From Escherichia phage AV128: a DNA stretch of 64,000 bases. The notes beneath the pieces are model-generated. The model saw only the letters and a list, made by a program, of their open reading frames with translations, ran no database searches and was not told the origin of the DNA. The stretch lies in sequence record OR352958.1; one strand, given 5' to 3'. The translations under genes were made by a program, and so were the position numbers. Positions 1 through 15,978 of this stretch are shown in pieces. Each line of letters starts with the position of its first letter. Position 1 is the stretch's first letter.

Positions 1-33
1 TGGGTGCTTTCTTATTAAAATATTGAGGTTAAC

Positions 34-282
34 ATGAATAAAAATGAATCAGTAGCATTCTTGCAATGGCTGGAAGGCGTGGTGGAGTATCGCGCGACAA
101 GCGACCGTTTCATCTTTCAAGGCAAAAGCTTCAAGCGCAAAGGACAAGCCCAGAAAGCAGCGCGTAAGTACTGGAAGGAAGTTTATTCAGAATTTTTCTC
201 TCAAATGGGAATCATCGGTGCAACCGTATCCGGCGACCCTGCGCAGTTGGTATCGATTGATGAATCCAATCGTTACAATTAA
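34..282 (+). CDS. hypothetical early protein (82 aa)
   Basis: ATG at 34 with GAGG upstream; track ORF; no motif recognised. Confidence 0.5.
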   Translation: MNKNESVAFLQWLEGVVEYRATSDRFIFQGKSFKRKGQAQKAARKYWKEVYSEFFSQMGIIGATVSGDPAQLVSIDESNRYN

Positions 283-297
283 TAAACCGATTTGAAT

Positions 298-320
298 GCC
301 GCGCTATGCGGCTTTATTAT
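298..320 (+). terminator. intrinsic terminator
   Basis: GCCGC-loop-GCGGC hairpin followed by TTTATTAT just after stop of 34..282. Confidence 0.45.
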
Positions 321-355
321 AGTTATTGTTAATCACCCTCATGAAAGGTAATGAT

Positions 356-736
356 ATGTCAAATAAGAATGATTCTATTCACAACACATATACTAAAGGC
401 AGCGGAATGGCCTTTGGTGGAAGCATCAAAATTAACGTGCCATCTTGCGATTATGATGGATTGGAAGTCGGCAACCGCGACTTAACATGGGTTTTACGTC
501 GCCAATCCGATTTAGAAGAGAAGCTGGAAAATATTGAGCGTTCTCTTGAAAGTCTTCGCGACCAGCTTTTTGGTTGTCCTGAAGATGAGTCAAAACCTGA
601 ATCACATGCAGCCAATCGCGGTTTGATTGATAATATGCTTGCTATTACCGCTCGATCAATTGGTAAAACTGTGTCCATTGAATCATTGATCAGCCAGATT
701 GCGGATGGCTTTGGTGATGCCCATAAGAGTGAATAG
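356..736 (+). CDS. hypothetical early protein (~126 aa)
   Basis: track ORF 326..736 opens at TTG; in-frame ATG at 356 has AAGG about 7 nt upstream (ATG 341 also possible). Confidence 0.45.
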   Translation: MSNKNDSIHNTYTKGSGMAFGGSIKINVPSCDYDGLEVGNRDLTWVLRRQSDLEEKLENIERSLESLRDQLFGCPEDESKPESHAANRGLIDNMLAITARSIGKTVSIESLISQIADGFGDAHKSE

Positions 737-1384
737 TGGGTGTTGCTGATTTAACCGTGAATCGTGGGTCGCTGTGGCGGCCCTTTCTTTTGCCTGCCGC
801 GCAGGAGTGTACTGCAAATTTACTGTGGGCACAAAATAGTACGGTACTGTCTAGGACTTTTTCTTTGAAAAGTTAGTGGACCAAATGTGTCGTATTTTGA
901 TTAGTGTACTGCAAATTTCATCAAGTACCAAAACGCACCAAAAGACCCATGCCCTAAAAACCACACGAACGCAATAATCAATCGCCGTTACAGTTTCCAG
1001 CGTTACAATTAGAAAGCGAATGATTCGATGCATAATAATATGAAACATAATGATTCGAAAGCGAATGATTGCGTGTAGGATAATATCGGTGGGGATTATT
1101 ATATATGTCGGTAATTTCGCATGCGTACTATTTTCGGGCGAAGGGTCGGCATATTCCTCGTTTTAGTTCGGAACGAAGGGAAAGTTTTGCGCCTTTATAA
1201 AACAACGACTTACGCGACCCGCCTTAACGGTCCGATATAGGTGTCTATATAAAACAAGGACTTGCGCGATGTTCTCCATTTAACGTAATACCTGTTATGC
1301 GAACTAAGGAGCATCTCGAAGAAGATTATGCGACGACGAAGGGAAGGATAAAGGAGTTTTCGCGTAGGAGCGCACCGAGATAGG

Positions 1385-1413
1385 GACGAAGAAAAGCCGC
1401 GACTAAGCGCGGC
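1385..1413 (-). terminator. intrinsic terminator (minus-strand RNA)
   Basis: GCCGCG-loop-CGCGGC hairpin (1396-1413) followed on minus strand by CTTTTCTTCG; 20 nt downstream of stop of 1434..1724. Confidence 0.5.
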
Positions 1414-1433
1414 CTATTAGTAACGGAAGGGTA

Positions 1434-1724
1434 TTATAAGGAGACGATTTTAAAATAAGTCACTTCGCCGCCGAGTTGCGGTACAGCGATATATTCGCCG
1501 CCGATTTCGGTAATCGTATAGACGAAGCCGTTAATCGTTACGCGGCAGGATACGATGTCCTCGTCGCGATACTTGTAAAGGTCGAGGAAGTTGATCGGCT
1601 CATAAATAGACTCGATAGTTGCGTCGACGTTAGAGAGATAAACGCTCTCTAAGGTTTCGCCAAATACGTTAGAGTTTTCGGAAGTCTCGACGCGAGCGGA
1701 ACGGATAGCGGCTAAAGTAATCAT
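1434..1724 (-). CDS. small acidic protein, paralog A (96 aa)
   Basis: ATG with AGGAG upstream; protein shares segments with ORFs 2010..2312 and 2537..2821 (e.g. SVYLSNVDATIES vs EVYAANVDQTIEA). Confidence 0.55.
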   Translation of the reverse strand: MITLAAIRSARVETSENSNVFGETLESVYLSNVDATIESIYEPINFLDLYKYRDEDIVSCRVTINGFVYTITEIGGEYIAVPQLGGEVTYFKIVSL

Positions 1725-1748
1725 AATAATCTCCTAGTTGGTCGGGCG

Positions 1749-1769
1749 GGTAGCGACCTATTCGCTACC
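1749..1769 (-). promoter_or_regulatory. 5-prime leader stem-loop of paralog A transcript
   Basis: GGTAGCG-7nt-CGCTACC inverted repeat between promoter and RBS; same position in paralog C leader carries GTTAACG-7nt-CGTTAAC (compensatory changes). Confidence 0.4.
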
Positions 1770-1791
1770 TCATCCCCTCTCGATATAAAAC

Positions 1792-1820
1792 ATTATAGTC
1801 TTAGTGTACGAAGAAGTAAA
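1792..1820 (-). promoter_or_regulatory. sigma70-like promoter for paralog A
   Basis: on minus strand TTTACT-N17-TATAAT; 19-nt block CTTTACTTCTTCGTACACT conserved upstream of paralog B. Confidence 0.45.
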
Positions 1821-1839
1821 GCACTTTTCGTTATTTTTT

Positions 1840-1992
1840 CTATTTATTTAAAGCGCGTCTCCCAAGTTCGACGACCCAAGCGGCGGCATCTTCCGCCTTA
1901 TTAAATTCGTATAGATGCTTCTTATCTTCGAAGACGTAAAATAAAATACGTCCGAACTTATTAGCCTTCGCGCTTAACTCGATAGTTTTCAT
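1840..1992 (-). CDS. micro-ORF (50 aa), hypothetical
   Basis: ATG at 1992 with AGGAG 5 nt upstream; below the track's 60-aa cutoff; lies between paralog B and the paralog A promoter. Confidence 0.3.
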   Translation of the reverse strand: MKTIELSAKANKFGRILFYVFEDKKHLYEFNKAEDAAAWVVELGRRALNK

Positions 1993-2009
1993 CTTCTACT
2001 CCTTTTTCG

Positions 2010-2312
2010 TTATTTTGCGATAAAATATTTATAAGCCTTATCGCCTTCTACGTCGATATACTCGACGATAATTAACGCTTCGCCGCGCGGCGTAACCGTC
2101 TCGATAAGGGTAACGGCTTCGTCGTCGGTCTTCGCGAAGCGGATGGCACTACGTTCGGCGTACTTAATATCGTCGAAGGAAAGGCCGACGAAAGCGACCG
2201 CGCGGACCTTAATGATGGTGGATTCTAGTTCCGCGTTAACGGCGGCGATAAGAGAACGAACGGTTAAACGGTCTTCGTCGTAAGTAATGATAGAAGAGAT
2301 TAAAGTGGTCAT
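2010..2312 (-). CDS. small acidic protein, paralog B (100 aa)
   Basis: track ORF 2010..2369 trimmed to ATG at 2312, which has GGAG upstream; paralogous to 1434..1724 and 2537..2821. Confidence 0.55.
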   Translation of the reverse strand: MTTLISSIITYDEDRLTVRSLIAAVNAELESTIIKVRAVAFVGLSFDDIKYAERSAIRFAKTDDEAVTLIETVTPRGEALIIVEYIDVEGDKAYKYFIAK

Positions 2313-2368
2313 AATAAAACTCCCGATGCTAGTAGAAGGAAGGGCCATCGCCCGTCTCGATATAAACA

Positions 2369-2396
2369 AGTATACGCGAGTGTACGAAGAAGTAAA
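2369..2396 (-). promoter_or_regulatory. sigma70-like promoter for paralog B
   Basis: on minus strand TTTACT-N16-TATACT with the conserved CTTTACTTCTTCGTACACT block. Confidence 0.4.
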
Positions 2397-2440
2397 GAAA
2401 AAAGATAAAATAATTTATCTCATTTTTATCGAAAAAGTGC

Positions 2441-2468
2441 TTTACTTTTTTCTACACTATATTATAAT
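2441..2468 (+). promoter_or_regulatory. sigma70-like promoter for paralog C
   Basis: TTTACT-N16-TATAAT; divergent from the paralog B promoter. Confidence 0.45.
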
Positions 2469-2492
2469 GTACTCATATCGGGACGGGATGAG

Positions 2493-2513
2493 TTAACGAA
2501 TAGGTCGTTAACG
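2493..2513 (+). promoter_or_regulatory. 5-prime leader stem-loop of paralog C transcript
   Basis: GTTAACG-AATAGGT-CGTTAAC immediately upstream of CAACTAGGAG RBS. Confidence 0.4.
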
Positions 2514-2536
2514 CCTCTCCCAACTAGGAGTTTAAA

Positions 2537-2821
2537 ATGGCTATTCTTAACGTTTCTTCTATTCGTAACGCTATCGTCGAGAACTACGGCGTAAAACAAA
2601 TTTTATCCGAAGTCTACGCCGCGAACGTAGACCAAACTATCGAGGCGGGTGGGGTAACGGTCGCCGAGGCGTTTAAACTTTACGCGGCGTTACCGGAATC
2701 GGACCGCGAAGCCTTCGAAGTAAACGTTAACGGATATTTCTTCGAAGCGGTCGAAATCGGTAATATCTTACTCGTTATGGGCGAAGAAGAATTTGAGACC
2801 TTCTCCCTCGTCGAAGCGTAA
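2537..2821 (+). CDS. small acidic protein, paralog C (94 aa)
   Basis: ATG 2537 with AGGAG; about 18 Asp/Glu vs 4 Lys/Arg; paralog of A and B. Confidence 0.55.
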   Translation: MAILNVSSIRNAIVENYGVKQILSEVYAANVDQTIEAGGVTVAEAFKLYAALPESDREAFEVNVNGYFFEAVEIGNILLVMGEEEFETFSLVEA

Positions 2822-2901
2822 GAGAGGATTTTTAGAGCGTCGTGCGCGGCGCTTTAATAAAATTCTTTCGCGCCTAGCGCCCTAACAAATAGGAGTTTAT
2901 T

Positions 2902-3528
2902 ATGGTTAGCTTAAATCGCTTTTCTACTAGCGGCGACGTTATCGCAACTAAGACCGCCGACCTCGTTGCATTCTATAATGCAAATTCCGGCTCAAAACCG
3001 ATTAAGAAGTTTGCGGACCGCCGGACCGCCGAGACTCGCGTAATCGCGTTAATCGAGTCCTTAAACGCGCTCGATGAGCCGTCCAACGAGTCGCCCATCC
3101 CTGACGCGAAGCCGCGCGAGGAAGTGTCCAGCGATGTAAAAACGCATAAGGCGCGTGCGGTCGTTAAAAAGGCCGAGCCGACCCAGGAAGAACTCGATGC
3201 GATGAGCGATGAAGAGTATGAAGCCTTCGTTAAGAGCGGCTTAAACGATAGTGCAAATTGCGTAGTGCAAAATGGAACTCCTTCCCATCGCCGTTCGAAT
3301 AGCGAAGGTATTGCAAAAAGTTGGGATAACAAGGAAGTGGCGCAAAAGCGTCTCACCCGTAACGGCGTTATTGTCGAGGGTGTAGGAGAGTTCAAATCGG
3401 TCCGCGTAGCGTTTGCTGCGCTGGGCTTACCAGATAGCAAGCACATTCGCTTCCGCATGAAGCTTAAAGAAGCTGGACGCTTGAACTTCGAGTTCGGCAA
3501 CAAGTCCTACACCTTCCAGATCATCTAA
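2902..3528 (+). CDS. hypothetical early protein (208 aa)
   Basis: ATG with AGGAG upstream; contains two in-frame copies of the ATAGTGCAAAT motif (3248-3275). Confidence 0.5.
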   Translation: MVSLNRFSTSGDVIATKTADLVAFYNANSGSKPIKKFADRRTAETRVIALIESLNALDEPSNESPIPDAKPREEVSSDVKTHKARAVVKKAEPTQEELDAMSDEEYEAFVKSGLNDSANCVVQNGTPSHRRSNSEGIAKSWDNKEVAQKRLTRNGVIVEGVGEFKSVRVAFAALGLPDSKHIRFRMKLKEAGRLNFEFGNKSYTFQII

Positions 3529-3534
3529 TCGAAT

Positions 3535-3560
3535 GGCGGCCCTTCGGGGTCGCTTTTCAT
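3535..3560 (+). terminator. intrinsic terminator
   Basis: GGCGGCCC-TTCG-GGGTCGC hairpin then TTTTCAT after stop of 2902..3528. Confidence 0.5.
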
Positions 3561-3578
3561 AGTGCAAATTGGTGGCTT

Positions 3579-3842
3579 ATGAACACGCTTATTCTCATCG
3601 CTACGTTGTCCATCGGAAGTGGTCGCGCCTTATCCCTTTATGACCATAGTGCAAATTGCGCTTACCCAACGCGCGTTGCGGCGATAGTTAATAGTGCAAA
3701 TCGAATGCTATTTGAGACTTGTTGGCGGGTAGATAACGAGAAAGGGCGCATCGTCTTAGGTTATAGTGCAAATCTGCTGGTGGAGTCGTTCGATTGGACG
3801 GCGGAAGGTCGTAAATTGTTACGTAAAGTGACTAAAAGATGA
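3579..3842 (+). CDS. doubtful ORF (87 aa) lying over the motif array
   Basis: ATG with GGTGG upstream, but three motif copies fall in-frame (each read as Ser-Ala-Asn); may be non-coding. Confidence 0.2.
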   Translation: MNTLILIATLSIGSGRALSLYDHSANCAYPTRVAAIVNSANRMLFETCWRVDNEKGRIVLGYSANLLVESFDWTAEGRKLLRKVTKR

Positions 3843-3901
3843 CTTATAATAATACACTTTCTAACGCGTTTATGGTTGTAGCCTTCCCCGTCGTATTACC
3901 G

Positions 3902-3944
3902 ATGGCCCTAGAAGTTGAGAAAATGTGTTCTAGGGCCATTTTAT
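3902..3944 (+). terminator. intrinsic terminator / stem-loop
   Basis: perfect 12-bp inverted repeat ATGGCCCTAGAA...TTCTAGGGCCAT with 14-nt loop followed by TTTAT. Confidence 0.45.
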
Positions 3945-3956
3945 AGTGCAAATTGG

Positions 3957-4445
3957 CTAGTGGCGGGAGAATTGCTCACCCTCTTTGGCTGCCTCTCCAA
4001 AATCCTTGTAGAAATCGTCCATGGAACGGCCCATTTTACTATTGCCATTTTCATCAATCATCGTGATGCCGTAGATGATATTCAGTTCACGGATAGCATT
4101 AAGCTTGGCTGATGCCGCGACTTCTGGATCACGCACAAGCTTCACTAAATTGTGGATGGAACTCTTTACGCTCCACAATTCCTTCAATGGCATCTCTTCC
4201 ATACGCTTTTTGTAGCGCATCTTGTAGTACGGATTGCGCTGCGTGCAGAGGATTCGCTGGCCAGTGTAGTTATCGGTCGCAACCTCCATGCCAAATACTA
4301 GTGCAAAAGCTGCGCGCATGTCATGGCCCTGAATAACAAGGTCAATGAACTCATCGAATAAAGCCTGATTGTGCTCTGCAAATCGCGGGTCTTCAAAGTC
4401 CTCAGGCATCGCTACATAATCTTGACTCATAGTGCAAAATCCCAT
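3957..4445 (-). CDS. hypothetical protein (162 aa)
   Basis: track ORF; both candidate ATGs (4445, 4430) sit inside motif copies and lack a clear RBS. Confidence 0.4.
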   Translation of the reverse strand: MGFCTMSQDYVAMPEDFEDPRFAEHNQALFDEFIDLVIQGHDMRAAFALVFGMEVATDNYTGQRILCTQRNPYYKMRYKKRMEEMPLKELWSVKSSIHNLVKLVRDPEVAASAKLNAIRELNIIYGITMIDENGNSKMGRSMDDFYKDFGEAAKEGEQFSRH

Positions 4446-4656
4446 AGTGCAAATTAATAGTGTGAATTATACAATGATTGAACATTATATTCAAGTGCAG
4501 ATTGATGTTCAAATTGGCTGTAAACGTACACAAACCATAGTGCTGAATGAATATCGGACCGTGGTGCGTGGTGTACTGTTTGATACGTATAAAAGAAATC
4601 CATCCCTTTCGCCGCTTGTTATGCAAATCAATGACTTAGCCGCTGCTGGATGGTTG

Positions 4657-4945
4657 AAGCGTATCATGAAGTATCATCCGTATTGCCGCAAGTCTTTGTT
4701 TTTACTTATATCTTACGGATGATACGTATAAATATAAGTTTAGTATAAGTATGAGGATGTAGAAAAAAATTAATTTAAATTAATTCAAAATGGAGTTAAT
4801 TGTTTTTTTTCAAAGTTGTATAAAGTATAGCGGCGACGCGTATCATCCGTATCATCCGTAAGATGTACCACTGAACCCAGTCGCGGCGCACCATAGAAGT
4901 GTGTGGAGTGAACTACGGATAGGTCCAAATCTTACGTCATTATAC
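4657..4945. repeat. iteron/AT-rich palindromic element, copy A
   Basis: tandem 9-bp units GTATCATCC in direct and inverted orientation around an AT-rich core; 46-bp block nearly identical to 57322-57367. Confidence 0.6.
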
Positions 4946-4999
4946 GCTTAAATTCTATGCGTAAGGTTAGCCAGCTAACTATATCTCCTTTTTAATTTC

Positions 5000-5225
5000 A
5001 AGCGGCAATCCCATAGACGGCGCAGCCTACAGGCCCACACACCACGGTACACGCTCCAATTCCTAGTGATTCCCTCTACAATCCCACAGCACCACAGTAC
5101 AATATTCTTCCAAATACGCACACATATTCAAGACACACAAATCACGTCACAATCCTCGTTTCACACCATCCTCTAATAGATTTACACAAATCAATCGCTT
5201 TATCCGATAATAAAGCCTCACAAAC
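5000..5225 (+). other. CA-rich, G-poor strand-asymmetric tract
   Basis: runs such as cccacacaccac, acacatattcaagacacacaaatcac; dense ACA triplets; no ORF. Confidence 0.5.
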
Positions 5226-5230
5226 AACAG

Positions 5231-5256
5231 GCAAACAAAAAGGGCCAATCGGCCCT
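5231..5256 (-). terminator. intrinsic terminator ending the minus-strand early/middle operon
   Basis: AGGGCC-GATT-GGCCCT hairpin followed on minus strand by TTTTTGTTTG, just past stop of 5274..5726. Confidence 0.55.
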
Positions 5257-5273
5257 CTTAACATTAGTCAAAA

Positions 5274-5726
5274 TTAAAATATAAAATTCTTCACTCCTAG
5301 CCTTTTAAATTCTTTCCTTAACATTATATTAAACTTCTTCAATTTAGTTTTATTCATCCTTAGCGGATTGTAGGTGAACACCTTTTCTATTACTTCCTCG
5401 CTCATTTTTGAGCGCATATTAGTTGCGTAATAGTTCTTGAACGTATAAATAAGGTAATTTGCTTCAAGCTTAAGTTCAATTACTTCCTCCGATTCATCAA
5501 GCTCAAGCAATCCTCTTTGCGTAAGAATATCTCTTAATATATCCTGACATTTCTTGCAATCACCTTTGCCTAAAAGCGAGTCGATATAATCGCCGCTGAC
5601 GCGCTCATCACCGAAATATGTTGCGCGACCGCAAAGGCTTTGCACTTCTCCTTCGTCAAAGTAATGCGCACGATGGCCCCACTTCGGTATGGCCCAACCA
5701 GCGGCGATAAGCCGTTTGCCCATCAC
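5274..5726 (-). CDS. hypothetical early/middle protein (150 aa)
   Basis: track ORF, last gene of minus-strand operon. Confidence 0.5.
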   Translation of the reverse strand: MMGKRLIAAGWAIPKWGHRAHYFDEGEVQSLCGRATYFGDERVSGDYIDSLLGKGDCKKCQDILRDILTQRGLLELDESEEVIELKLEANYLIYTFKNYYATNMRSKMSEEVIEKVFTYNPLRMNKTKLKKFNIMLRKEFKRLGVKNFIF

Positions 5727-6148
5727 CCCTCCTTAACGACCCGATAAGCAATAATGTCACTGCCTTTGAGTGCTCCTATATGACCCCAGTGAAGATGGTC
5801 AGAAAGTCTCGACAGTACTTTATCACCTCCATTGCGCAGCTTGTATTCAACAATCTCGCCAGGCACCGGATTCTTTCCACCAAGCCACACGGTCCACGCA
5901 CCATCCTTCGGCGCACTTTCCTCTTCGATTCGCGTGGCAACAACGTCGTGCAACTGCTTAACGAGCGCCGACGCATCACGGACCTGTGAGCGTAATGCAA
6001 CCAACTCGCGTTGCGCTTCACTGTATTTCGCTTCCAGCGCGGCGTAGTCCTCATATGCAACAAAACGTCCTTTGTGACTTTCTGGAACAGGAGTGATGTC
6101 GAAATCTTCTGTCGCCACATCGTATGTCAGGTCGTAACGTTGTACCAT
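5723..6148 (-). CDS. hypothetical protein (141 aa)
   Basis: track ORF, start/stop overlap with neighbours. Confidence 0.5.
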   Translation of the reverse strand: MVQRYDLTYDVATEDFDITPVPESHKGRFVAYEDYAALEAKYSEAQRELVALRSQVRDASALVKQLHDVVATRIEEESAPKDGAWTVWLGGKNPVPGEIVEYKLRNGGDKVLSRLSDHLHWGHIGALKGSDIIAYRVVKEG

Positions 6149-6151
6149 GAT

Positions 6152-6544
6152 TTAATCCTGTTTGTATTGAATAGTTAATTTGACGTAAGCCTTTCCGATT
6201 ACTTTTGCGCGTTTATATTCGATTGCGCGAAGGAGTTCGAAACGCATCCAAGTGGTGCGACAAGGTTGACCGTCGACAATCTCATAGATGATGCCGTCGC
6301 TATCATCACTTGTCGGGAATGCATAAATGCTTCCAGAAGAATTGACCATTTTGACAACGGTGTATTCTTCGCCTGCCGTTTTCATAAGGTCAATTTGCAA
6401 GTCACGATGGGCCAGTTCAGCAGCGATGTCAGACTTGCTGTAAAGTCCTTCGTGAGTCATGGCATAGATGTGGCGCGTATAATAGCCGCCCTCGTCGAGT
6501 TGCTCGATGTCACGTTGCCCGACTGCGTATTGTTTATCGGTCAT
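6152..6544 (-). CDS. hypothetical protein (130 aa)
   Basis: track ORF in same-strand operon. Confidence 0.5.
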   Translation of the reverse strand: MTDKQYAVGQRDIEQLDEGGYYTRHIYAMTHEGLYSKSDIAAELAHRDLQIDLMKTAGEEYTVVKMVNSSGSIYAFPTSDDSDGIIYEIVDGQPCRTTWMRFELLRAIEYKRAKVIGKAYVKLTIQYKQD

Positions 6545-6948
6545 AATTTCACCTTCTCATAAACGGTTGCCACTGCACCTTCGCCTTTGTTGATGTGCAG
6601 TTTAATGATCACGTGCATAACGGCGCGTAAGGGGTTGTCATGCCAGCCGCTGCGCTTGAATGATGCGATGTCCATACTGTCCAACGCGACGTAAGCCGAG
6701 TAGTCACGGTTTGGTCTCTGGTTGCCGCAGTTGCGAACGACGCTGACATCATTGGCAAGCATCACGGGCCAAGCTGCTGTGATGTCGTTGCAATAGTCTC
6801 GCGGATAAGGGAAACGGCCTTGCGGGTCGACTAGCCCGTGCACATACTCGTTGATGATTGCATCGCTTAACTTGAACAGTGAGTCATCGCCGCCGTAAAG
6901 CTCGCCGCGCACCAGTTCTTCTAAACGTTCTTTATGTTGATTCATCAT
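6541..6948 (-). CDS. hypothetical protein (135 aa)
   Basis: track ORF, 4-nt overlap with neighbour. Confidence 0.5.
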   Translation of the reverse strand: MMNQHKERLEELVRGELYGGDDSLFKLSDAIINEYVHGLVDPQGRFPYPRDYCNDITAAWPVMLANDVSVVRNCGNQRPNRDYSAYVALDSMDIASFKRSGWHDNPLRAVMHVIIKLHINKGEGAVATVYEKVKL

Positions 6949-7275
6949 TTATTCCTTGACTGGATAAAATTTAGGATTGTTCTTGTAGAATGCCTTGAGC
7001 CACGCCTTTGCTTCGGCAATGCTGCTGAACTCTTCCTTGGAGAGTCCGGTGCGGTCCTCGCCTGCGACCTTGAAATGAATGCGCACCTTGAGCCGAAGGT
7101 TGGTTGCTCTCGCGTAGTGGCCTTCATAGCCGTGATGGTCGAGGCTTACGATGGCGGCAAGCAGCTCGCAATCTTCTTTATCGGGATTACCGTTGTAACA
7201 AGTCGGCCAGCCGCGACGTTGGAATGACCTGTATTGGCCTGTTGGCTCAGGGTCCACATACCATTTCAATTTCAT
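6949..7275 (-). CDS. hypothetical protein (108 aa)
   Basis: track ORF in operon. Confidence 0.5.
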   Translation of the reverse strand: MKLKWYVDPEPTGQYRSFQRRGWPTCYNGNPDKEDCELLAAIVSLDHHGYEGHYARATNLRLKVRIHFKVAGEDRTGLSKEEFSSIAEAKAWLKAFYKNNPKFYPVKE

Positions 7276-7613
7276 TTAACCTTCTCCAATTGGAATCTTG
7301 CTTCTGGAAAGCCTGCGACAAACATGTCACGGCCATCGACATCACGCTTCACGAACCAACGCATGCCGTTGACAACCGTGAAGACAATTTGCCTTCCATC
7401 AATAATAAGTCCTTTTGCCTCATAAAGCAAATAAGTCTGACCGACTTTGAAGCTTAACATATCCTTGCTTGTGCTGGTGCACTTGAGCCGCCATTGGGTG
7501 AGATTGGATTCGCTCGCCTCAATGTCAACAACCTTACCGCGCAGCGGCGATGTGCGCTGAAGCTCTTTCATTTGCTCGTCGAACGTGAGCTCACGGCCTT
7601 CTTGCTCTTCCAT
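7272..7613 (-). CDS. hypothetical protein (113 aa)
   Basis: track ORF in operon. Confidence 0.5.
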   Translation of the reverse strand: MEEQEGRELTFDEQMKELQRTSPLRGKVVDIEASESNLTQWRLKCTSTSKDMLSFKVGQTYLLYEAKGLIIDGRQIVFTVVNGMRWFVKRDVDGRDMFVAGFPEARFQLEKVK

Positions 7614-7939
7614 TATTCAACCTTCTCCTTCAAATGCTCATGCTTCTCCCCGATGTGAGCGACAGGTTGACGGCTTCCGTAATAGAATGCCAACGCAACG
7701 TCGTAGGATGGATGGGTGTTGGATAAGCAGATGTCATCACACCAAAGCTCCATGGTGCGCGACTTAAGCGTCATCATATTAGTATACCACTCGATGGTGT
7801 AGTGGTCGTTAAGGTTGCCGACGATATAGAAGTTGCGACAAAAGTGCGCAGCATCATCCGACTTCTCGCGGCTATAGCTTCTGATTGCGCCAGCCTTTAC
7901 CGCCATTTCCAATACTGCTTCGAGTTGTTCGATTTTCAT
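7613..7939 (-). CDS. hypothetical protein (108 aa)
   Basis: track ORF in operon. Confidence 0.5.
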   Translation of the reverse strand: MKIEQLEAVLEMAVKAGAIRSYSREKSDDAAHFCRNFYIVGNLNDHYTIEWYTNMMTLKSRTMELWCDDICLSNTHPSYDVALAFYYGSRQPVAHIGEKHEHLKEKVE

Positions 7940-8172
7940 TTCTTTGCTCCGAGTTCAATTTGATAGCCGATTGACAATTCATTTTCGCCGATGTTGAATG
8001 CATCAACGGGCTGCGACATCACCGCCTTTAAATATACCTTCTTGCGCCGCTTCGCCTTGTACAAGCAACGGTTGCCGCTGCGGTTGTAAATGTTAAGCCA
8101 GGTGCGCTTACTAATCTTATATGGCACATGCGGCTTAATGAATAATAAACGGGCCTTAAGATTTGATGCCAT
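7936..8172 (-). CDS. hypothetical basic protein (~78 aa)
   Basis: track ORF 7936..8214 trimmed to internal ATG (MASNLKARL) so it does not run over the upstream gene. Confidence 0.4.
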   Translation of the reverse strand: MASNLKARLLFIKPHVPYKISKRTWLNIYNRSGNRCLYKAKRRKKVYLKAVMSQPVDAFNIGENELSIGYQIELGAKK

Positions 8173-8177
8173 AATAT

Positions 8178-8486
8178 TCACTTCCCTCCAAACGTTGCAA
8201 CACGGATTCCGCAACGTTCAAATGTCAACATAGGGTTAAGGCCGTCGGCACAAGTGATGAATAAATCATCAACAACAAGCTCATACCCTCCGACGTAAAG
8301 TATAAACTTATCATCGGTGTTATTTAACAAAAGGATTGCGGCGATGCCGCCTTGATTATTACTAAATCCTATTGCATTCTCTCCGCTGACTTGCGCCTCA
8401 TTAAACTCTTTGATAGCACCACAGTTCACGCCTTCTTGCAAAGCGTTCAAAATCTTTTTCTTCAACGCTTCGGTACTCATAATCAT
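8178..8486 (-). CDS. hypothetical protein (102 aa)
   Basis: track ORF in operon. Confidence 0.5.
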   Translation of the reverse strand: MIMSTEALKKKILNALQEGVNCGAIKEFNEAQVSGENAIGFSNNQGGIAAILLLNNTDDKFILYVGGYELVVDDLFITCADGLNPMLTFERCGIRVATFGGK

Positions 8487-8728
8487 TCCTCCTCAGAAAA
8501 TATGGCGCACAATCCATCTAATTTTTTATCCTCAGAGAGAAAGTAATAGAACAAGCCGCTTGAAGACTTCTCGATGTTCAAACAGCCAGCTCCTGGTGAT
8601 AGCGGGTCCATATAGTAATGCGAAACGCCATCATCACCCTCTACTGATTCCACTACATAGGTCTCACCAAAAGATGGCTTGAATTCAGAATTAATCTTGC
8701 TGTAAATACAAACTGTTCTAATACTCAT
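8483..8728 (-). CDS. hypothetical protein (81 aa)
   Basis: track ORF in operon. Confidence 0.45.
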   Translation of the reverse strand: MSIRTVCIYSKINSEFKPSFGETYVVESVEGDDGVSHYYMDPLSPGAGCLNIEKSSSGLFYYFLSEDKKLDGLCAIFSEEE

Positions 8729-9027
8729 AGCTCACCCTCTTTAAAAACAAAGCCGCTGATAACAGATTGATAGTAGGTCACGCCGCGCACCTCTACAGCC
8801 TTGCACCGATGAGCCTGACCCTTGTATTCTATCCACCAGACTTCCATGTCAGGCAAGTTGTTGCGACGCGCCAACCAGCCGTGAAACAGCTTGTGTGTTT
8901 CGCCGACCTTAAAAGGTTTCAGCGTACCGTAAGAATCAACCTTGAATGCGCAGACAACATCTTTGCTGTCTTTGTGTACAGCGTCATGAAATAATCCGCT
9001 TCTGCCAAACCTTTCGTCGTAACTCAT
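8725..9027 (-). CDS. hypothetical protein (~100 aa)
   Basis: track ORF 8725..9087 trimmed to ATG with AAGGAG upstream; the longer start would lie inside the terminator hairpin. Confidence 0.45.
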   Translation of the reverse strand: MSYDERFGRSGLFHDAVHKDSKDVVCAFKVDSYGTLKPFKVGETHKLFHGWLARRNNLPDMEVWWIEYKGQAHRCKAVEVRGVTYYQSVISGFVFKEGEL

Positions 9028-9073
9028 AATCATTTCTCCTTTGCTTGATGAACTAAGTATAATACAGGCAAAT

Positions 9074-9102
9074 AAAAAGGCAAGCATTTAGCTCACCTTT
9101 TT
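9074..9102 (-). terminator. intrinsic terminator, copy 1 of an identical pair
   Basis: minus-strand RNA AAAAAGGUGAGC-UAAAU-GCUUGCCUUUUU then AUUUG; needs G-U pairs so forms only in minus-strand RNA. Confidence 0.5.
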
Positions 9103-9105
9103 GAA

Positions 9106-9366
9106 TTAAATATTCTTCGCCTCTTCGTGAAGGCCGACCGACCTTAGTTTGCGCCGCAAGTAAGCTTTCTTTTCGCTCTCCCGCCCTTTCGGAGTAACGC
9201 GCCAGCGTAATGTGTTCTCCAGATTCTTGCGTCGGTTGTGCTCGTCGAGTAGCTCTACCAGTGCCTTTGCATCGTCTAGTGTTAACGCCACGGGCCGCGA
9301 CCCATTAACGGCTTGCCGAAGCTTCCGCGCGGCAACGGCTAACTTAGTCATCGGACCCTTGTTCAC
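9106..9366 (-). CDS. hypothetical basic protein (86 aa)
   Basis: track ORF in operon. Confidence 0.5.
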   Translation of the reverse strand: MNKGPMTKLAVAARKLRQAVNGSRPVALTLDDAKALVELLDEHNRRKNLENTLRWRVTPKGRESEKKAYLRRKLRSVGLHEEAKNI

Positions 9367-9746
9367 GGCAACTCCTTATTCATAGGCGTGATAGACAACA
9401 CCTTCACTTCAGTTATGTCACGGTTGTATTCGCGCTTCATTTGTAGAATCTGAGATTGGATGCGCGCAATAAAGTGCGGCGTGACTCCTTCCTTAACGTT
9501 AATCCAAGCCGCAAGCTGAATTGAGTCGATGTCGCTTCTCAATGTTGTTGGACAGTAAATCGTACTTGGTGCGCCGTAAGAACGTTGCACTTCATAAGCA
9601 GAAGCTTTGAATGACACCAAGAACATTCTTTCTTCAAGTTGGCTTTCGCTATTAGGATTCTTATCACAGTTAGTCAAGTGCTGCACAAACTCTTCGTGTG
9701 GAAGGTGCATTACATTGTGGCAGTAAGGGCAACGCTTCATTCTCAT
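9363..9746 (-). CDS. hypothetical protein with Cys/His-rich N-terminus (127 aa)
   Basis: CPYCHNVMHLPHEEFVQHLTNC suggests zinc binding. Confidence 0.5.
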   Translation of the reverse strand: MRMKRCPYCHNVMHLPHEEFVQHLTNCDKNPNSESQLEERMFLVSFKASAYEVQRSYGAPSTIYCPTTLRSDIDSIQLAAWINVKEGVTPHFIARIQSQILQMKREYNRDITEVKVLSITPMNKELP

Positions 9747-9979
9747 TTTGCATACTCCATAGCATATTGCTGCAATTTATAAGCAGCCTTTCGTAATTGT
9801 TGGTGACGTTCAAATAAAGTCTCACGCTTTTCAGCAGGGCAATCAGCGCGAAGCATCGTGATGGCAAGCTTTGACATTGCGTTCAATACAAATTGAAAGC
9901 GCGACACCATACGCAACTCGTTGCGCTTGTTAAAAGACAGCTTACCCAGCGCGGCATTCATAATTGCACCTCGACACAC
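9743..9979 (-). CDS. hypothetical protein (78 aa)
   Basis: track ORF in operon. Confidence 0.45.
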   Translation of the reverse strand: MCRGAIMNAALGKLSFNKRNELRMVSRFQFVLNAMSKLAITMLRADCPAEKRETLFERHQQLRKAAYKLQQYAMEYAK

Positions 9980-10275
9980 GATTCACTAGCCTTGAAGCTC
10001 CAACCTTCCAGACCGACTTCGCCGCAACAGCGTGCCTTTGCCCATCCAGTCATCAACCATTGGCGGTGCTTCTCGAAATACGTTGGCCTTTCTGAATAAC
10101 AATGAACAAGGCCGTTATCGTCAATGGCCACGTAACGCGTCCAAGGTGCAACGGGTACAACTACGTCGGGGTGACCCTCTGGCCAAGGCTTGATGTGTAC
10201 AGCTGTGTTCAAGTCTACGTTTAACACGCTTCCTAACCGCTCGTCTTGTTCCTTGTCGATGCCTAAGTAAATCAT
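9958..10275 (-). CDS. hypothetical protein (105 aa)
   Basis: track ORF in operon. Confidence 0.45.
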   Translation of the reverse strand: MIYLGIDKEQDERLGSVLNVDLNTAVHIKPWPEGHPDVVVPVAPWTRYVAIDDNGLVHCYSERPTYFEKHRQWLMTGWAKARCCGEVGLEGWSFKASESCVEVQL

Positions 10276-10326
10276 AATTCACCTCACTTGTTCGTCTTGA
10301 TGAAAAGAGTATAAGTATTGATAAAA

Positions 10327-10355
10327 GAAAAGGCAAGCATTTAGCTCACCTTTTT
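10327..10355 (-). terminator. intrinsic terminator, copy 2 of an identical pair
   Basis: same 28-bp sequence AAAAGGCAAGCATTTAGCTCACCTTTTT as at 9074-9102. Confidence 0.5.
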
Positions 10356-10360
10356 GATAT

Positions 10361-10693
10361 TCATTTTACATAGTGGAGTAGGTCAATCTCTATCTCGTGC
10401 CTTGTCCTTGTTATCTTTGTATCACCCGTCCTGTGGGAGAATTGATAGAAGAAAGAGTCTTTGTGAGCACCTCGTTCAAACGTCATGCTGGCAATTCTGC
10501 ACCCGCATATTGCATCAAGCTTTGCTCCGTTAGACAAAAGGTTGAATGTCAAGACGGTGTTATCCATCCTTGCGTTTTGTTTGATGCAAGACTTTAAGAA
10601 CACATAAGAGTCAGCAAATGATTTGTGCCTTTTACAAATCTCTTTCACCTTCTCACGCTCATGCGCGGCGAGTATCTGATCACGGGTCATCAC
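10361..10693 (-). CDS. hypothetical protein (110 aa)
   Basis: track ORF in operon. Confidence 0.5.
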   Translation of the reverse strand: MMTRDQILAAHEREKVKEICKRHKSFADSYVFLKSCIKQNARMDNTVLTFNLLSNGAKLDAICGCRIASMTFERGAHKDSFFYQFSHRTGDTKITRTRHEIEIDLLHYVK

Positions 10694-10929
10694 TGCACCT
10701 CTGTTATTCCGGTAATTCGAACGATGACTGTGTCATCCAAATTGAACTGCTGCCGCGCGACGCGTTTGATGTCGTCCTTAAGGTCCGCAATCAACTCCCT
10801 TGTCAACACTGTACGCTCTGAAACGTCGTATTGAACGTCAAAGGTATACTCGCCATAAAATACCGCGCCATTGGGAAGTTGCACGACATAGAATGCCATA
10901 TACATCGCGTTAATATAATCTTCCATCAT
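10690..10929 (-). CDS. hypothetical protein (~79 aa)
   Basis: track ORF 10690..11040 trimmed to ATGATG at 10929, which overlaps the stop of the upstream gene. Confidence 0.4.
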   Translation of the reverse strand: MMEDYINAMYMAFYVVQLPNGAVFYGEYTFDVQYDVSERTVLTRELIADLKDDIKRVARQQFNLDDTVIVRITGITEVQ

Positions 10930-11273
10930 GCATTCTCCACGGGTCGACGGATGAGTTTGCGTAACCCTTCGGGCCACACCTTCTTGATCACAGCTTTCGC
11001 TGGGCTGGATGAAAGCTTCTTCAGTTTCAATAGAACACACCCCTCATCATCGTTCGGTTGTACCTGGATAACGACGCGCGCTTGTCGGTCGATGACCATG
11101 ACATCGCCAATGCGAATGTCTTTTACCAACACGCCCATCTCTTTCGTGCCGGATACGCCAATCACATGGTCGCATCGAACGCGCGGCGGTAGCAGCGTGC
11201 CACCGGAAGCCATCTCACGCACGCGCTTCTTAATTTCTGCGCCATACAACACTTCGTCTTTAACATGAGCCAT
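10926..11273 (-). CDS. hypothetical protein (~115 aa)
   Basis: track ORF 10926..11351 trimmed to internal ATG (MAHVKDE). Confidence 0.4.
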   Translation of the reverse strand: MAHVKDEVLYGAEIKKRVREMASGGTLLPPRVRCDHVIGVSGTKEMGVLVKDIRIGDVMVIDRQARVVIQVQPNDDEGCVLLKLKKLSSSPAKAVIKKVWPEGLRKLIRRPVENA

Positions 11274-11751
11274 GGTCGAGTACCTTATAGAATTTAGTGG
11301 TGAATCGCTCGTCGCCATAGTAGCGATATTTGCCGCCGCCAGTGTTATCAAACCTTACCCATTGAATTAAAGTCTGATCAGCGTCGTGCGACACGTGAAT
11401 CACTCGGCCATTGACAGGAATTGCACCCTCTTCCGCGTCCTTGCTTATGATTGAGTCGCCTTTCTTTATGTCAAATATGTCAATTGGCTTAAGGCGCGGC
11501 TTTTTATCAACATAAGTTTTAATAGGAACTCTTACGCAACGTGATTGATGGCAAATGGGTCTTGTTGCACCTTTGACGTTGCGCTTCAGTAATTCATCAA
11601 TGGCATAGTCAACGTCATCACTTTCAAACTCCTTCATGATAAAGTCTCTCACCCTTACACGAAGGTTAACATCTGCCTCTGCACGTCTCAATGCGTGTAA
11701 AATTTCTTCACACTCTTCTTTGTTTAACATTAAAGGGCGATGTATGATCAT
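11260..11751 (-). CDS. hypothetical protein (163 aa)
   Basis: track ORF in operon. Confidence 0.5.
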   Translation of the reverse strand: MIIHRPLMLNKEECEEILHALRRAEADVNLRVRVRDFIMKEFESDDVDYAIDELLKRNVKGATRPICHQSRCVRVPIKTYVDKKPRLKPIDIFDIKKGDSIISKDAEEGAIPVNGRVIHVSHDADQTLIQWVRFDNTGGGKYRYYGDERFTTKFYKVLDHGSC

Positions 11752-11754
11752 AAT

Positions 11755-11909
11755 TAACCTCTGATTTGTGACACAAAACGTTTATAATGCTCTTTGGCCA
11801 GGACGCGTGCGCGCTCTTTCGTATGGCCGCTGGCTTCAAGTACGCGGCGAAGCTGCTTGATTGCGTCTGCCTTACTGATTTTGTTATCGCTAAATTGATA
11901 TTTATTCAT
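11755..11909 (-). CDS. micro-ORF (50 aa), hypothetical
   Basis: ATG overlaps stop of upstream gene (ATGA); fills an otherwise empty 150-nt gap; below track cutoff. Confidence 0.35.
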
Positions 11910-12127
11910 GCTTCACAAGCCGCCTTGATTTGACGTGGAGTTACAATGACGACTTCACCAACCAGTGATTTGTCATCTTCTTTAACTGTATCGATTCTGA
12001 CGCGGTAATGATTGCGACCGCGCGAATCAGTAAGGTATTGATCCAGCTCAAGGATGGTGCCTGCACGCATGTGCTGTCCTGACATCCAACGGATACGGTC
12101 GCCAGCCTTAAGGGTTTTCTTGCTCAT
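11906..12127 (-). CDS. hypothetical protein (~73 aa)
   Basis: track ORF 11906..12292 trimmed to internal ATG (MSKKTLKAGD). Confidence 0.4.
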   Translation of the reverse strand: MSKKTLKAGDRIRWMSGQHMRAGTILELDQYLTDSRGRNHYRVRIDTVKEDDKSLVGEVVIVTPRQIKAACEA

Positions 12128-12134
12128 CTTCAAC

Positions 12135-12413
12135 TCACTTATAATATTTAAACATTGCCGCGCAAAAGTCTTGCATGGCATTCTTAATTTGCTTCTTGAA
12201 CAACGGATCATGCATCGTCTCAACATTCGTCTTGATCCGAACGTGACCGATAACATCAAACGCAGTTGCTGGCATCGGCTCATAGATTTCATGATCGTTC
12301 AAGATTATATCTAGCCTTGACTCAGAAATCACGGGATAATTCTTTCCAGCAGTAAATTGGTCATCAATAGATGATGTGCACTTGACAAAGAACACTTTGT
12401 ATGTAGTAATCAT
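12135..12413 (-). CDS. hypothetical protein (92 aa)
   Basis: track ORF in operon. Confidence 0.5.
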   Translation of the reverse strand: MITTYKVFFVKCTSSIDDQFTAGKNYPVISESRLDIILNDHEIYEPMPATAFDVIGHVRIKTNVETMHDPLFKKQIKNAMQDFCAAMFKYYK

Positions 12414-12619
12414 AGCGAGTCCTTCGGGCCGCAGTAGCGCCCGTCCAGGTAGCGGTCATATTGGATTAAAGCGAATGTTTTTAAAGAAAGGTTACGGCGC
12501 TTAAACAGATTGCCAGTTGCTGGATTCTGCTCGTGCGCCGTTGGATAAAGGCGTGACAGGTAGTGGATGAGGACTTGTAAAGCCCTACGTTGATTTGTTA
12601 TTCTCCCCTGTGTATTCAT
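12410..12619 (-). CDS. hypothetical protein (69 aa)
   Basis: track ORF in operon. Confidence 0.4.
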   Translation of the reverse strand: MNTQGRITNQRRALQVLIHYLSRLYPTAHEQNPATGNLFKRRNLSLKTFALIQYDRYLDGRYCGPKDSL

Positions 12620-12809
12620 GGCTGAATCTACCCTCTGTCAATATCCGGTCGTGGATAACTATACCAGTGCAGCGCAGGCGGTTGGCATTGCTTCGCGCCT
12701 TTGCTGCTTGATGAGGATTGAACAAGCCAAACAAACTAGCCTTAAAAGCAAACTGGTAATATTTGATTAAGGTACTAAGTGCTAACTCAATCCTGTCTAA
12801 ATTAATCAT
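12585..12809 (-). CDS. hypothetical protein (74 aa)
   Basis: track ORF; start uncertain. Confidence 0.35.
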   Translation of the reverse strand: MINLDRIELALSTLIKYYQFAFKASLFGLFNPHQAAKARSNANRLRCTGIVIHDRILTEGRFSHEYTGENNKST

Positions 12810-12848
12810 AATATCACCTCGTCAGAAAAGCAAATATTTTGATGATAA

Positions 12849-13496
12849 TTATCCTGTGGCCTGCATATTGCGTACATACTTCTGCTCTAATGAATAGATG
12901 AAGTCGGCGACAGTCAATCCCTTCGTGTGCCATTCATACATGGTGAAGCCTGTATTCAGGAAATAGCCGCGCACCTTGTCCATCGCTTCAGCTTCCTCCA
13001 TTGAAGCCATCAGCGCGGCGACGTTGTCATAAGAAGGCACAAATCCCTTCTTGCGTAGCGCATTGCGCAAATCTTTAGTTCTGAAGCCAATCTTGCAAGG
13101 GTCATCACGACCAGTGGATGATGCAACCTTTGGAAGAGCAAGGAACTCTTTAAGGAACATTGCAATGTTCAAGTCGCCTGCGTCATCAAGCTTCTGGATT
13201 CGGTTGCGACCGCGCCCCTTGAATTCACTCGCACGAGGGTGAGCGCCAAAACAGTGCGCCCCTTCCAGTTTAGGGTCGATGATCATTACATCTTTACCAA
13301 TGCGAAGCTCTACGTAGTAAAGATAAGACTCATCGACAAGCTTTGTGCGCTTGCAAGTGATTGAGTCCTTATCATAACCAAAGCCGCGCAACACTGTTGA
13401 AATCATCCGGTTCATTTCTTCGCCGTGAACATCACTCTCTTTGTTCAGTTCACCAAGATGTTGAAAGAATTTAGCGATGTTGATTGCTTTATTCAT
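12849..13496 (-). CDS. hypothetical protein (215 aa)
   Basis: track ORF immediately downstream of the NTPase gene. Confidence 0.5.
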   Translation of the reverse strand: MNKAINIAKFFQHLGELNKESDVHGEEMNRMISTVLRGFGYDKDSITCKRTKLVDESYLYYVELRIGKDVMIIDPKLEGAHCFGAHPRASEFKGRGRNRIQKLDDAGDLNIAMFLKEFLALPKVASSTGRDDPCKIGFRTKDLRNALRKKGFVPSYDNVAALMASMEEAEAMDKVRGYFLNTGFTMYEWHTKGLTVADFIYSLEQKYVRNMQATG

Positions 13497-15166: not shown

Positions 15167-15232
15167 TTAATCCTCCTGATACGGCTTTGTTATATTGTTG
15201 CATGGATATATCCTTTCAGGGTGCGGTAAATA

Positions 15233-15252: not shown

Positions 15253-15302
15253 GTATATTAATATAGTAAAACTCAATTTAAAGCAATATAACTGGTGAAC
15301 TA

Positions 15303-15977: not shown

Positions 15978-15978
15978 G

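Follow-up and report, generated by a model that had tools for sequence, protein, structure and literature searches.

Positions 1434-2821 of the window, a 64,000-nucleotide (nt) stretch of Escherichia phage AV128 (record OR352958.1), hold three small genes, A, B and C, each with its own promoter and leader. The three open reading frames (ORFs) are all present where the original prediction had placed them. A (1434-1724, minus strand) encodes 96 amino acids (aa) with an isoelectric point (pI) of 4.2 and 14 Asp/Glu against 6 Lys/Arg; B (2010-2312, minus strand) encodes 100 aa (pI 4.7, 17 against 12) and C (2537-2821, plus strand) 94 aa (pI 4.05, 16 against 4). The two most informative facts about these cassettes, both absent from the original prediction, are that they lie in the direct terminal repeat of the genome and that the DNA around them is purged of the complementary dinucleotides CA and TG (hereafter CA/TG). 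On balance we favor the view that 1434-2821 is an immediate-early, pre-early-like module of a Wifcevirus phage. The features of the region are as follows.

1090..3240, no strand: CA/TG-depleted island, covering the three cassettes, the non-coding DNA of 1090-1393 and the N-terminal half of gene D
1394..1415, minus strand: intrinsic terminator at the end of the A transcript, found by terminator scan; the records of Mansfield and WFH annotate it too
1434..1724, minus strand: gene A, 96-aa acidic orphan protein of the A/C/C' family (ORF, BLASTP, profile search)
1725..1784, minus strand: 5' leader of A, with the predicted start at the A of AUCGAGAGGG at 1784, a hairpin at 1749-1769 and an unpaired Shine-Dalgarno sequence, AGGAG
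1792..1838, minus strand: promoter P_A, with upstream A-tract/GAAAAGTG, CTTTACT at -35, a 17-nt spacer and TATAAT
1840..1992, minus strand: 50-aa basic ORF, with its own Shine-Dalgarno sequence and no promoter of its own; an indel
2010..2312, minus strand: gene B, 100-aa orphan protein of a separate family, in 28/28 Wifcevirus records
2313..2397, minus strand: promoter P_B (TTTACT-16-TATACT) and leader, the leader starting AUCGAGACGGG and having a weak 4-bp hairpin only
2398..2439, no strand: AT-rich divergent region, UP-element-like in sequence, common to P_B and P_C; same arrangement in contigs L127 and L129
2440..2536, plus strand: promoter P_C (TTTACT-16-TATAAT) and leader, with a hairpin at 2492-2512
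2537..2821, plus strand: gene C, 94-aa acidic paralogue of A, in a variable slot
2822..2901, plus strand: C-D spacer, with a strong hairpin (fold z=-4.4) and the second copy of the Shine-Dalgarno block TAGGAGTTTA
2902..3528, plus strand: gene D, 208-aa basic protein matching phrog_4730 (function unknown), with a composition switch near 3240

Location in the direct terminal repeat

The window comes from Wifcevirus, a group of E. coli myophages. The 3-kb region around the cassettes is 93-97% identical to 28 phage records, all of them Wifcevirus, from E. coli and Shigella myophages of ~68 kb. In Mansfield, PhageTerm places the direct terminal repeat at record positions 1-3673, and in the WFC record the repeat is duplicated at both ends. 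Mapped on the window, the ends of these two genomes give a ~3.8-kb direct terminal repeat from ~860/941 to 4791. The cassettes lie inside it and start a few hundred bases from the boundary that is one physical end of the genome, and the distance of the module and its CA/TG-poor DNA to that end is 150-230 bp. The module is thus placed as a T5-type pre-early region is, in a long direct terminal repeat.

A CA/TG-depleted island

Within 1090-3240 the symmetrised odds of CA/TG are 0.33, as compared to 1.18 in the rest of the window, while those of CG are 2.07 against 1.10 and those of TA 1.22 against 0.66. Outside the island the CA/TG odds have a mean of 1.19 (sd 0.11, minimum 0.80), and no other 500-nt segment in the 64 kb falls below 0.80. 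The CpG richness that had been reported for the region is real (observed/expected 2.1-2.2 against ~1.1 elsewhere) and is a by-product of the CA/TG depletion.

The depletion reaches into the coding sequences. When the proteins were kept and their codons redrawn from the phage's own usage, the observed CA/TG counts were 11 against 34.5±4.0 for A, 9 against 36.5±4.3 for B and 6 against 33.9±3.8 for C, values reached in 0/2,000 draws; the 50-aa ORF has 5 against 18.6 expected. Met, Trp, Cys, His and Gln, the residues whose codons must include CA/TG, make up 1-4% of A, B and C as compared to 10.5% elsewhere. The non-coding DNA of 1090-1393 is depleted equally, CA and TG are equally rare on the sense strands, and all eight NTG/TGN contexts are affected (0.04-0.5), CTG/CAG most. 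In gene D the N-terminal half is CA/TG-poor (22 observed, 40 expected) and the C-terminal half normal, with the switch near 3240. This switch coincides with the first copy of a 10-mer repeat, TAGTGCAAAT, described below.

The same signal is found in relatives, metagenomic ones included, and is present in L127-L129. In L127 the CA/TG odds of the island are 0.02-0.10, with 9 CA/TG in 1,130 bp, 5/9 of them in ATG triplets (3 at start codons); they are 0.28-0.36 in L129, 0.24 in Pantoea phage Kyle and 0.14-0.3 in Serratia phage MTx. Where the ends of the repeat are known (WFC, Kyle and MTx), the island is adjacent to the same boundary of the terminal repeat. In GC-rich relatives that still carry D, the island is absent. 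Given that the island is kept across relatives while inserted ORFs have normal composition, the depletion appears, from these comparisons, to be maintained by selection on the resident sequence.

Several other causes were considered and rejected. Recent horizontal acquisition does not fit an island kept across genera whose module proteins are ~30-55% identical, with compositionally normal inserted genes. A translational or codon-level cause does not fit the equal depletion of non-coding DNA and codon junctions, and an RNA-level cause acting on a single dinucleotide does not fit the equal absence of CA and UG from sense strands, including those of the unidirectional L127 operon. A genome-wide modification in CA contexts, as the sole cause of restriction resistance, would leave EcoRI and EcoRV uncovered. 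Targeted full-text searches, one of them of the Wifcevirus literature, found no prior description of the CA/TG depletion.

Promoters resembling T7 A1

A consensus scan places P_A (TTTACT-17-TATAAT) at 1820..1792 and P_B (TTTACT-16-TATACT) at 2396..2369 on the minus strand, and P_C (TTTACT-16-TATAAT) at 2441..2468 on the plus strand. Each site matches sigma70 at 9-10/12 hexamer positions, with spacers of 16-17 nt. A 19-nt block, CTTTACTTCTTCGTACACT, is exact in P_A and P_B, and P_C has it with 3 mismatches (CTTTACTTTTTTCTACACT). In degenerate form, the promoter block occurs at 0 mismatches in three places only in 64 kb, namely P_A, P_B and P_C, against a chance expectation of 0.08. The expectation that each gene has its own sigma70-like promoter with a shared block is thus borne out, and transcription is predicted to start near 1784(-), 2361(-) and 2477(+).

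The block CTTTACTTCTTCGTACACT is also exact in L127 and has 1 mismatch in L129. Both contigs are distant relatives, since P0038, the A-like protein of L127, has no better match to the A/C profile than E=1.8e-11. Four CTTTACT-17-TATAAT promoters occur in Kyle and one in MTx, all followed by (U)AUCGA/G. A scan of IMG/VR with the degenerate block gave mostly chance matches, its 14 specified bases being too unspecific.

The closest likeness outside these phages is to the T7 A1 promoter. The annotated A1 start, at position 498 of the T7 record, reads ATCGAGAGGGACACGGCGAATAGCC, and P_A reads ATCGAGAGGGGATGAGGTAGCGAATAGG. Both have an upstream ATC(G)AAAAAG(A)GT block, a 17-nt spacer and 7 nt from the -10 element to the start. 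The two transcripts share their first 10 bases, ATCGAGAGGG, and start AUCGAGAGGG; at A1 spacing, the initial transcribed sequence is this exact 10-mer for P_A, ATCGAGACGG for P_B and ATCGGGACGG for P_C. Both A1 and P_A are also followed by a small hairpin with the loop GCGAAUAG (a GC GAAUAG hairpin loop). The -35 elements differ, TTGACT in T7 and TTTACT in the window, the latter without G and hence without TG. On a larger scale, the A1-A3 group also comprises three strong sigma70 promoters near a genome end, before small acidic early proteins. However, A1-A3 stand in tandem upstream of gene 0.3/Ocr, while the promoters of the module are divergent and each has its own gene; A, B and C are unrelated to Ocr, and the leading DNA of T7 is not CA/TG-depleted. 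The similarity to A1 could reflect common descent or convergence.

Hairpins in the A and C leaders

Over 65 nt, the leader of A is homologous to that of C, with 78% identity. RNA folding gives each an 8-bp hairpin with the loop AUAGG and leaves the Shine-Dalgarno sequence unpaired: GGTAGCGA-AUAGG-UCGCUACC at 1749-1769(-) in A and GUUAACGA-AUAGG-UCGUUAAC at 2492-2512(+) in C. The fold of the A leader has -19.7 kcal/mol (z=-2.3). The two hairpins differ in two pairs by changes of both partners (UA/GC and GC/AU), and three leader variants have G·U or U·G intermediates; the leader hairpin with compensatory changes that had been proposed for A and C is thereby confirmed. Among 11 distinct A-type and C-type leaders of Wifcevirus the helix is 98.9% paired. 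Its covariation score is reached in 0/500 shuffles, and slid registers collapse. The 11 leaders fall into two clades and hence represent about two independent compensatory events, for which a rough chance estimate is ~0.002. Most, not all, cassettes of the wider clade have a hairpin at this position, with differing sequences. An Rfam scan of the region at E<=1 returned chance-level matches elsewhere only, and no curated RNA family for the leader.

The hairpin had been presented as either an RNA structure or a palindromic operator. RNA-level pairing is favored by the compensatory changes and by the G·U intermediates, which are neutral in RNA but would be mismatched in a cruciform of DNA and would make an operator asymmetric. 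The element also lies downstream of the promoter, at about +16 to +36 of the transcript and without a U-tract, and two different stem sequences in one genome are both still paired. The palindrome might instead act at the DNA level, as the operator of a dimeric regulator or as a recombination hotspot like the T4 PeSL stem-loops: the loop CGAAUAGG, invariant in 11/11 Wifcevirus leaders and similar in Kyle and T7 A1, suggests sequence-specific recognition, and the cassettes recombine at short shared sequences. The mapped crossover of gene C, however, is in a Shine-Dalgarno repeat and not in the hairpin, and we regard action at the DNA level as unlikely. As an RNA structure, the hairpin may be a 5' stabiliser, an insulator of the ribosome-binding site or a protein-binding site, the last because the loop is invariant.

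Two families of orphan proteins

The original prediction described A, B and C as three acidic paralogues of an unrecognised family. The paralogy of A and C was borne out (30% identity, E=7e-6 by BLASTP). B is unrelated to either by sequence, with no similarity in BLASTP and a profile-profile probability of 0.2% in hhalign, and it has relatives of 122-125 aa in the distant contigs L127 and L129. By these comparisons, the three proteins form two orphan families rather than one. For C, the 4 Lys/Arg were correctly stated, and its Asp/Glu number 16 instead of ~18.

Searches of Pfam, PHROG, NCBIfam and PDB sequences gave nothing above noise for A, B, C, the 50-aa ORF, the inserted ORFs of relatives or C', a 104-aa protein that takes the C slot in WFH-type phages. 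In agreement with its description as unrecognised, A, B and C are orphans in these searches and in fold searches. D has a sole match in the same databases, phrog_4730; it is the only module gene kept in distant relatives (53-55% identical in L127 and L129), and its homologues occur in 29 IMG/VR loci. In a search of 5.8 billion proteins, A and B were confined to Wifcevirus genomes. An exhaustive search with the A+C profile added P0038 (E=1.8e-11) and P0042 (E=1e-3) as genuine though distant members, while the Big_13 repeat proteins that it also returned were discounted as spurious summed matches. C' aligns weakly but end to end with C, and over its first 39 residues it is 44% identical to a 94-aa acidic protein of Kyle (E=9e-7).

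The suggestion that these are DNA mimics of the Ocr/ArdA type was not upheld. Like such mimics, A, B and C are small, acidic and predicted to be expressed first. However, sequence, profile and hidden Markov model (HMM) searches found no match to Ocr or ArdA. The AlphaFold models, of low confidence (pLDDT 61 and 58), predict A as mostly beta and B as two helices and a sheet, in contrast to the all-helical Ocr, and Foldseek found no match of either model among PDB folds. The acidity is moderate (15-17% Asp/Glu), much lower than that of Ocr, and is weak evidence of mimicry. Moreover, resistance to EcoRI and EcoRV would be left unexplained by such a mimic.

Exchange of cassettes among relatives

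The composition of the module varies among Wifcevirus genomes. C is found in 11/28 records, is replaced by C' in WFH and is lacking in others. In ECML-117 and RCIP0319, C is absent and a P_C-type promoter and leader drive gene D directly. The junction at which C is gained or lost is the repeated Shine-Dalgarno block TAGGAGTTTA, the apparent crossover point. Mansfield, WFH and ECML-117 lack the 50-aa ORF of 1840-1992. A further gene follows A in ECML-117, and in L125 a 193-aa gene is present and A absent. L127 and L129 have an A-like gene followed by a B-like one, and each of these genes has a promoter to itself. The inserted ORF of ECML-117, gp19 (L003 1441-1650), encodes 69 aa with many Met, His, Cys and Trp and is annotated as 'transcriptional regulator'; that of L125 (2133-2714, 193 aa) has a measured normal CA/TG content. 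Since foreign ORFs sit in the island of some relatives, violating the CA/TG purge is not instantly lethal.

This arrangement resembles the PeSL elements of T4 (PMC2839356, PMC4122927), repeated modules of a strong sigma70 promoter with AT-rich upstream DNA, a stem-loop and flanking orphan genes, which mediate insertion, deletion and replacement between close relatives. Of the parts of a PeSL, the cassettes have the promoter, the AT-rich DNA and the variable orphan genes, and lack the upstream terminator stem-loop. The PeSL stem-loop is a terminator upstream of the promoter, whereas the hairpin of the window lies in the 5' untranslated region (5'-UTR) without a U-tract, and the crossover was mapped to the Shine-Dalgarno block.

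Restriction sites and published phenotypes

Wifcevirus phages have been reported to resist type I, II and III restriction without a known protection mechanism. They resist EcoKI, EcoCFT_I, EcoRI, EcoRV and EcoCFT_II and are very sensitive to EcoP1_I, even though EcoP1_I and EcoCFT_II have similar numbers of sites in their genomes. The broad resistance leaves room for an early anti-restriction function. There are precedents: T5-like phages resist type I, II and III restriction if the sites lie outside the terminal repeats (PMC10644984), EcoRI sites of T5 are cut only within first-step-transfer DNA (10.1101/866236), and the type I sensitivity of murciaviruses is determined by their leading region (PMC12455610).

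The island holds 0 sites for EcoRI, EcoRV, EcoKI and EcoCFT_I and 0 EcoAI-type sites, and five AGACC (EcoP1I) sites in both orientations. The EcoCFT_II site is probably CACAG. We derived it by matching the published per-genome site counts for Bas98 and Bas99 (L160, L162-L164): CACAG is the only 5-mer with 92 occurrences in Bas99 and 93 in Bas98. Our counts for control enzymes reproduce the published table, for all five in Bas99 and for the three checked in Bas98 (EcoP1_I, EcoRI and EcoRV). CACAG occurs 0 times in the island of the window, 0 times in that of Bas99 and once in that of Bas98. The in-silico distribution of sites thus agrees with the plating data under the T5 rule, and under that of the murciaviruses, through one contrast, CACAG against AGACC, in which CACAG is the site deduced here.

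A probable immediate-early module and its alternatives

The anatomy, location, conservation, composition and restriction-site distribution of the module were read directly from the genomes, and from these we infer its expression timing, the function of its proteins and the cause of the depletion. Lying near a physical end, the module would be among the first DNA available in the cell. The host sigma70 RNA polymerase would fire three strong promoters of T7-A1 type, each with an A-tract, a CTTTACT -35, a near-perfect -10 and a AUCGAGAGGG start. The 5'-UTRs of A and C would fold into a 5'-proximal stem-loop with the strong Shine-Dalgarno sequence free, and the exchangeable cassettes would express small orphan proteins of the A/C/C' and B families together with the conserved D. 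One or more of these products may then establish host takeover or general protection of the remaining genome from restriction, as the T5 pre-early and T7 class I genes do; that an early product protects the rest of the genome is a reasonable supposition. The island DNA itself would have to function unprotected before the early products exist, which would select against whatever reads CA/TG-containing sequence, at minimum against many restriction sites. In this way, the CA/TG purge may explain the restriction resistance of Wifcevirus phages. Of the early, host-takeover profile that the original prediction had drawn, the part that stands is the immediate-early anatomy, with the site in the terminal repeat and the colinearity with T7 A1; the DNA-mimic family and fold drew no support from the searches.

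The module can be compared with several known systems. T5 and BF23 likewise have early genes with divergent host-type promoters inside a long direct terminal repeat; T5 is restricted only via sites in that region, and the sites and phenotypes of Wifcevirus appear to fit the same rule. The repeat is 3.8 kb here as compared to 10 kb in T5. Pfam, PHROG and NCBIfam searches found no homologues of A1, A2 or dmp of T5 among the module proteins. CA/TG is normal in T5 first-step DNA (0.8-1.07), where only CpG is raised: in T5 (L165), CpG odds are mostly 1.1-1.5 in the first-step repeat 1-10219 (one 1-kb window 0.97) against 0.5-0.9 in 10220-20000. The host-takeover module of SPO1 is also a cluster of small genes in a terminal redundancy with several strong early promoters and ribosome-binding sites, and some of its products, Gp44 and Gp46, are acidic DNA mimics; it differs in its Gram-positive host and its 24-26 genes, is unrelated in sequence and is not known for a dinucleotide purge. 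Taken together, the module would work like the T5 pre-early region, the T7 class I genes and the SPO1 takeover module and shuffle like T4 PeSL, and its proteins appear to belong to none of their families.

Several observations weigh against this account. Not every leader is structured: the B leader has no significant hairpin (z=-0.05), two Kyle cassettes have none, and one pair is broken by a mismatch in one Bas98 variant. The zero count of 6-bp and bipartite sites in 2.15 kb is close to chance, so that the discriminating evidence on restriction is essentially CACAG, our deduced site, against AGACC. Restriction-site poverty fits the phenotypes, but diffuse avoidance of such sites seems too weak a force to produce the odds of 0.02 in L127. 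The depletion is absent from the first-step DNA of T5 and from the left end of T7; early entry alone therefore does not predict it, and a general property of early-injected DNA was rejected as its cause. Finally, profile, sequence and fold searches found neither homology nor a confident structure tying A, B, C or D to anti-restriction or takeover proteins.

The small proteins could instead be unrelated to defence: factors that shut off transcription, replication or division of the host, factors of DNA entry like A1/A2 of T5, or the products of dispensable accessory genes. The takeover module of SPO1 is reported to encode inhibitors of RNA polymerase, HU and ClpCP and not anti-restriction proteins; the acidity of A, B and C is moderate, and the amino-acid alphabet imposed by CA/TG avoidance also shapes their composition; and C is dispensable in nature. 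On the other side, something confers broad restriction resistance, and the annotation offers no other candidate. The diversification of paralogues and the replacement in one slot (A, C, C' and the 94-aa protein of Kyle) are typical of arms-race genes, although this is suggestive only. Proteins without a role in defence are accordingly a possibility that we take seriously, while judging it the less probable one.

The purge itself could have a source other than restriction sites. It might be due to an activity that reads the CA/TG dinucleotide itself, a frequent-cutting or nicking nuclease or a DNA modifier, encoded by the phage (for example for breakdown of host DNA) or belonging to a host defence, from which the first-expressed DNA is exempt. 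Such a reader would account for the depletion of all eight NTG/TGN contexts with CTG/CAG as the extreme, for the 9 CA/TG left in 1,130 bp of L127, for the exclusion of amino acids whose codons must include CA/TG and for TTTACT in the promoters where T7 A1 has TTGACT; the equal loss of CA and TG from sense strands and non-coding DNA points to a property of double-stranded DNA. However, no candidate enzyme was found; apart from standard replication genes, the BASEL annotation lists neither a nuclease nor a modification gene; the rest of the genome is CA/TG-normal and would need separate protection; and natural isolates tolerate inserts of normal CA/TG content (the 193-aa ORF of L125 and, judged from its Met, His, Cys and Trp, gp19 of ECML-117). 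We hold this explanation to be rather doubtful. Less probable still, and to our mind very unlikely, is that the purge serves the mechanics of the terminal repeat, for instance by precluding primase starts near the end so that long 3' tails remain for concatemers, or by meeting needs of replication, recombination or packaging. The E. coli primase DnaG uses CTG, no trinucleotide is more depleted than CTG/CAG, and one or more primases are encoded by the phage itself; the depletion affects both strands alike and is always adjacent to the same boundary of the repeat. Yet the depletion extends over only ~55% of the repeat and leaves the half towards the other terminus normal, and the terminal 150-230 bp hold CA/TG-containing repeats. 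A trinucleotide site would not require the purge of every CA/TG context, and the boundaries of the island follow the early transcription units, including the one in the middle of gene D.

Other sequence features of the terminal repeat

Several further repeats were observed around the module. AGTGTACTGCAAATTT has two exact copies, at 806-821 and 903-918; the first lies just outside both boundary estimates and the second between them (860 from the WFC end, 941 from PhageTerm on Mansfield). Both copies contain AGTGTAC, which is also part of the promoter block when that is read in reverse complement. Between the repeat boundary and the island, at 1000-1086, is an array of 4 copies of AATCATT/AATGATT-type 8-9-mers, and such arrays also occur at L129 3370-3600 (at least 10 copies), L127 6200-6450 and L137 2410-2600. 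These repeats resemble part of a Fur-box half-site. The segment 999-1439, CA/TG-poor from 1090, has no convincing ORF yet is 95% conserved in ECML-117; it holds a 25-nt direct repeat at 1193 and 1245, and Mansfield has a 39-aa ORF annotated there.

On the other side of the module, the 10-mer TAGTGCAAAT has 7 copies at 3249-4454, all on the plus strand and none elsewhere in the 64 kb, against a chance expectation of 0.24. They fall in D (C-terminal half), in gene E, between genes and at the beginning of the gene for the small terminase, and they could be recognition repeats for terminase or packaging. At 4466-4512 and 4671-4867, near-consensus promoter-like sites (TTGAAC-17-TATAAT) cluster on the minus strand, and nested inverted repeats (GTATCATCCGTA) occur in the AT-rich DNA around the other repeat end, 4791.

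Implications for Wifcevirus phages

For the restriction resistance of Wifcevirus phages, the search can now be confined to a leading module of 2 kb, in which four to five genes are candidates, and the EcoP1I exception receives a simple rule, namely that its sites are inside the island. The T7-A1-like promoter and leader are compact, strong and portable parts for expression. As a compositional signal the CA/TG-free island is unusually extreme: three phage groups at least have kept it, and its effects reach the choice of codons, the amino acids used and even the -35 of the promoters. Its cause, once explained, could show what first-entering DNA must hide from. A bolder and improbable extension is that the absence of CA:TG marks DNA hidden, in the first minutes of infection, from an unrecognised dinucleotide-reading activity, either a phage nuclease or modifier acting on all other DNA or a widespread enterobacterial defence, with A, B, C and D as its controllers or inhibitors. 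If true, the dinucleotide-reader view would be a new principle, the discrimination of self from non-self by sequence composition in the leading DNA of a virus.

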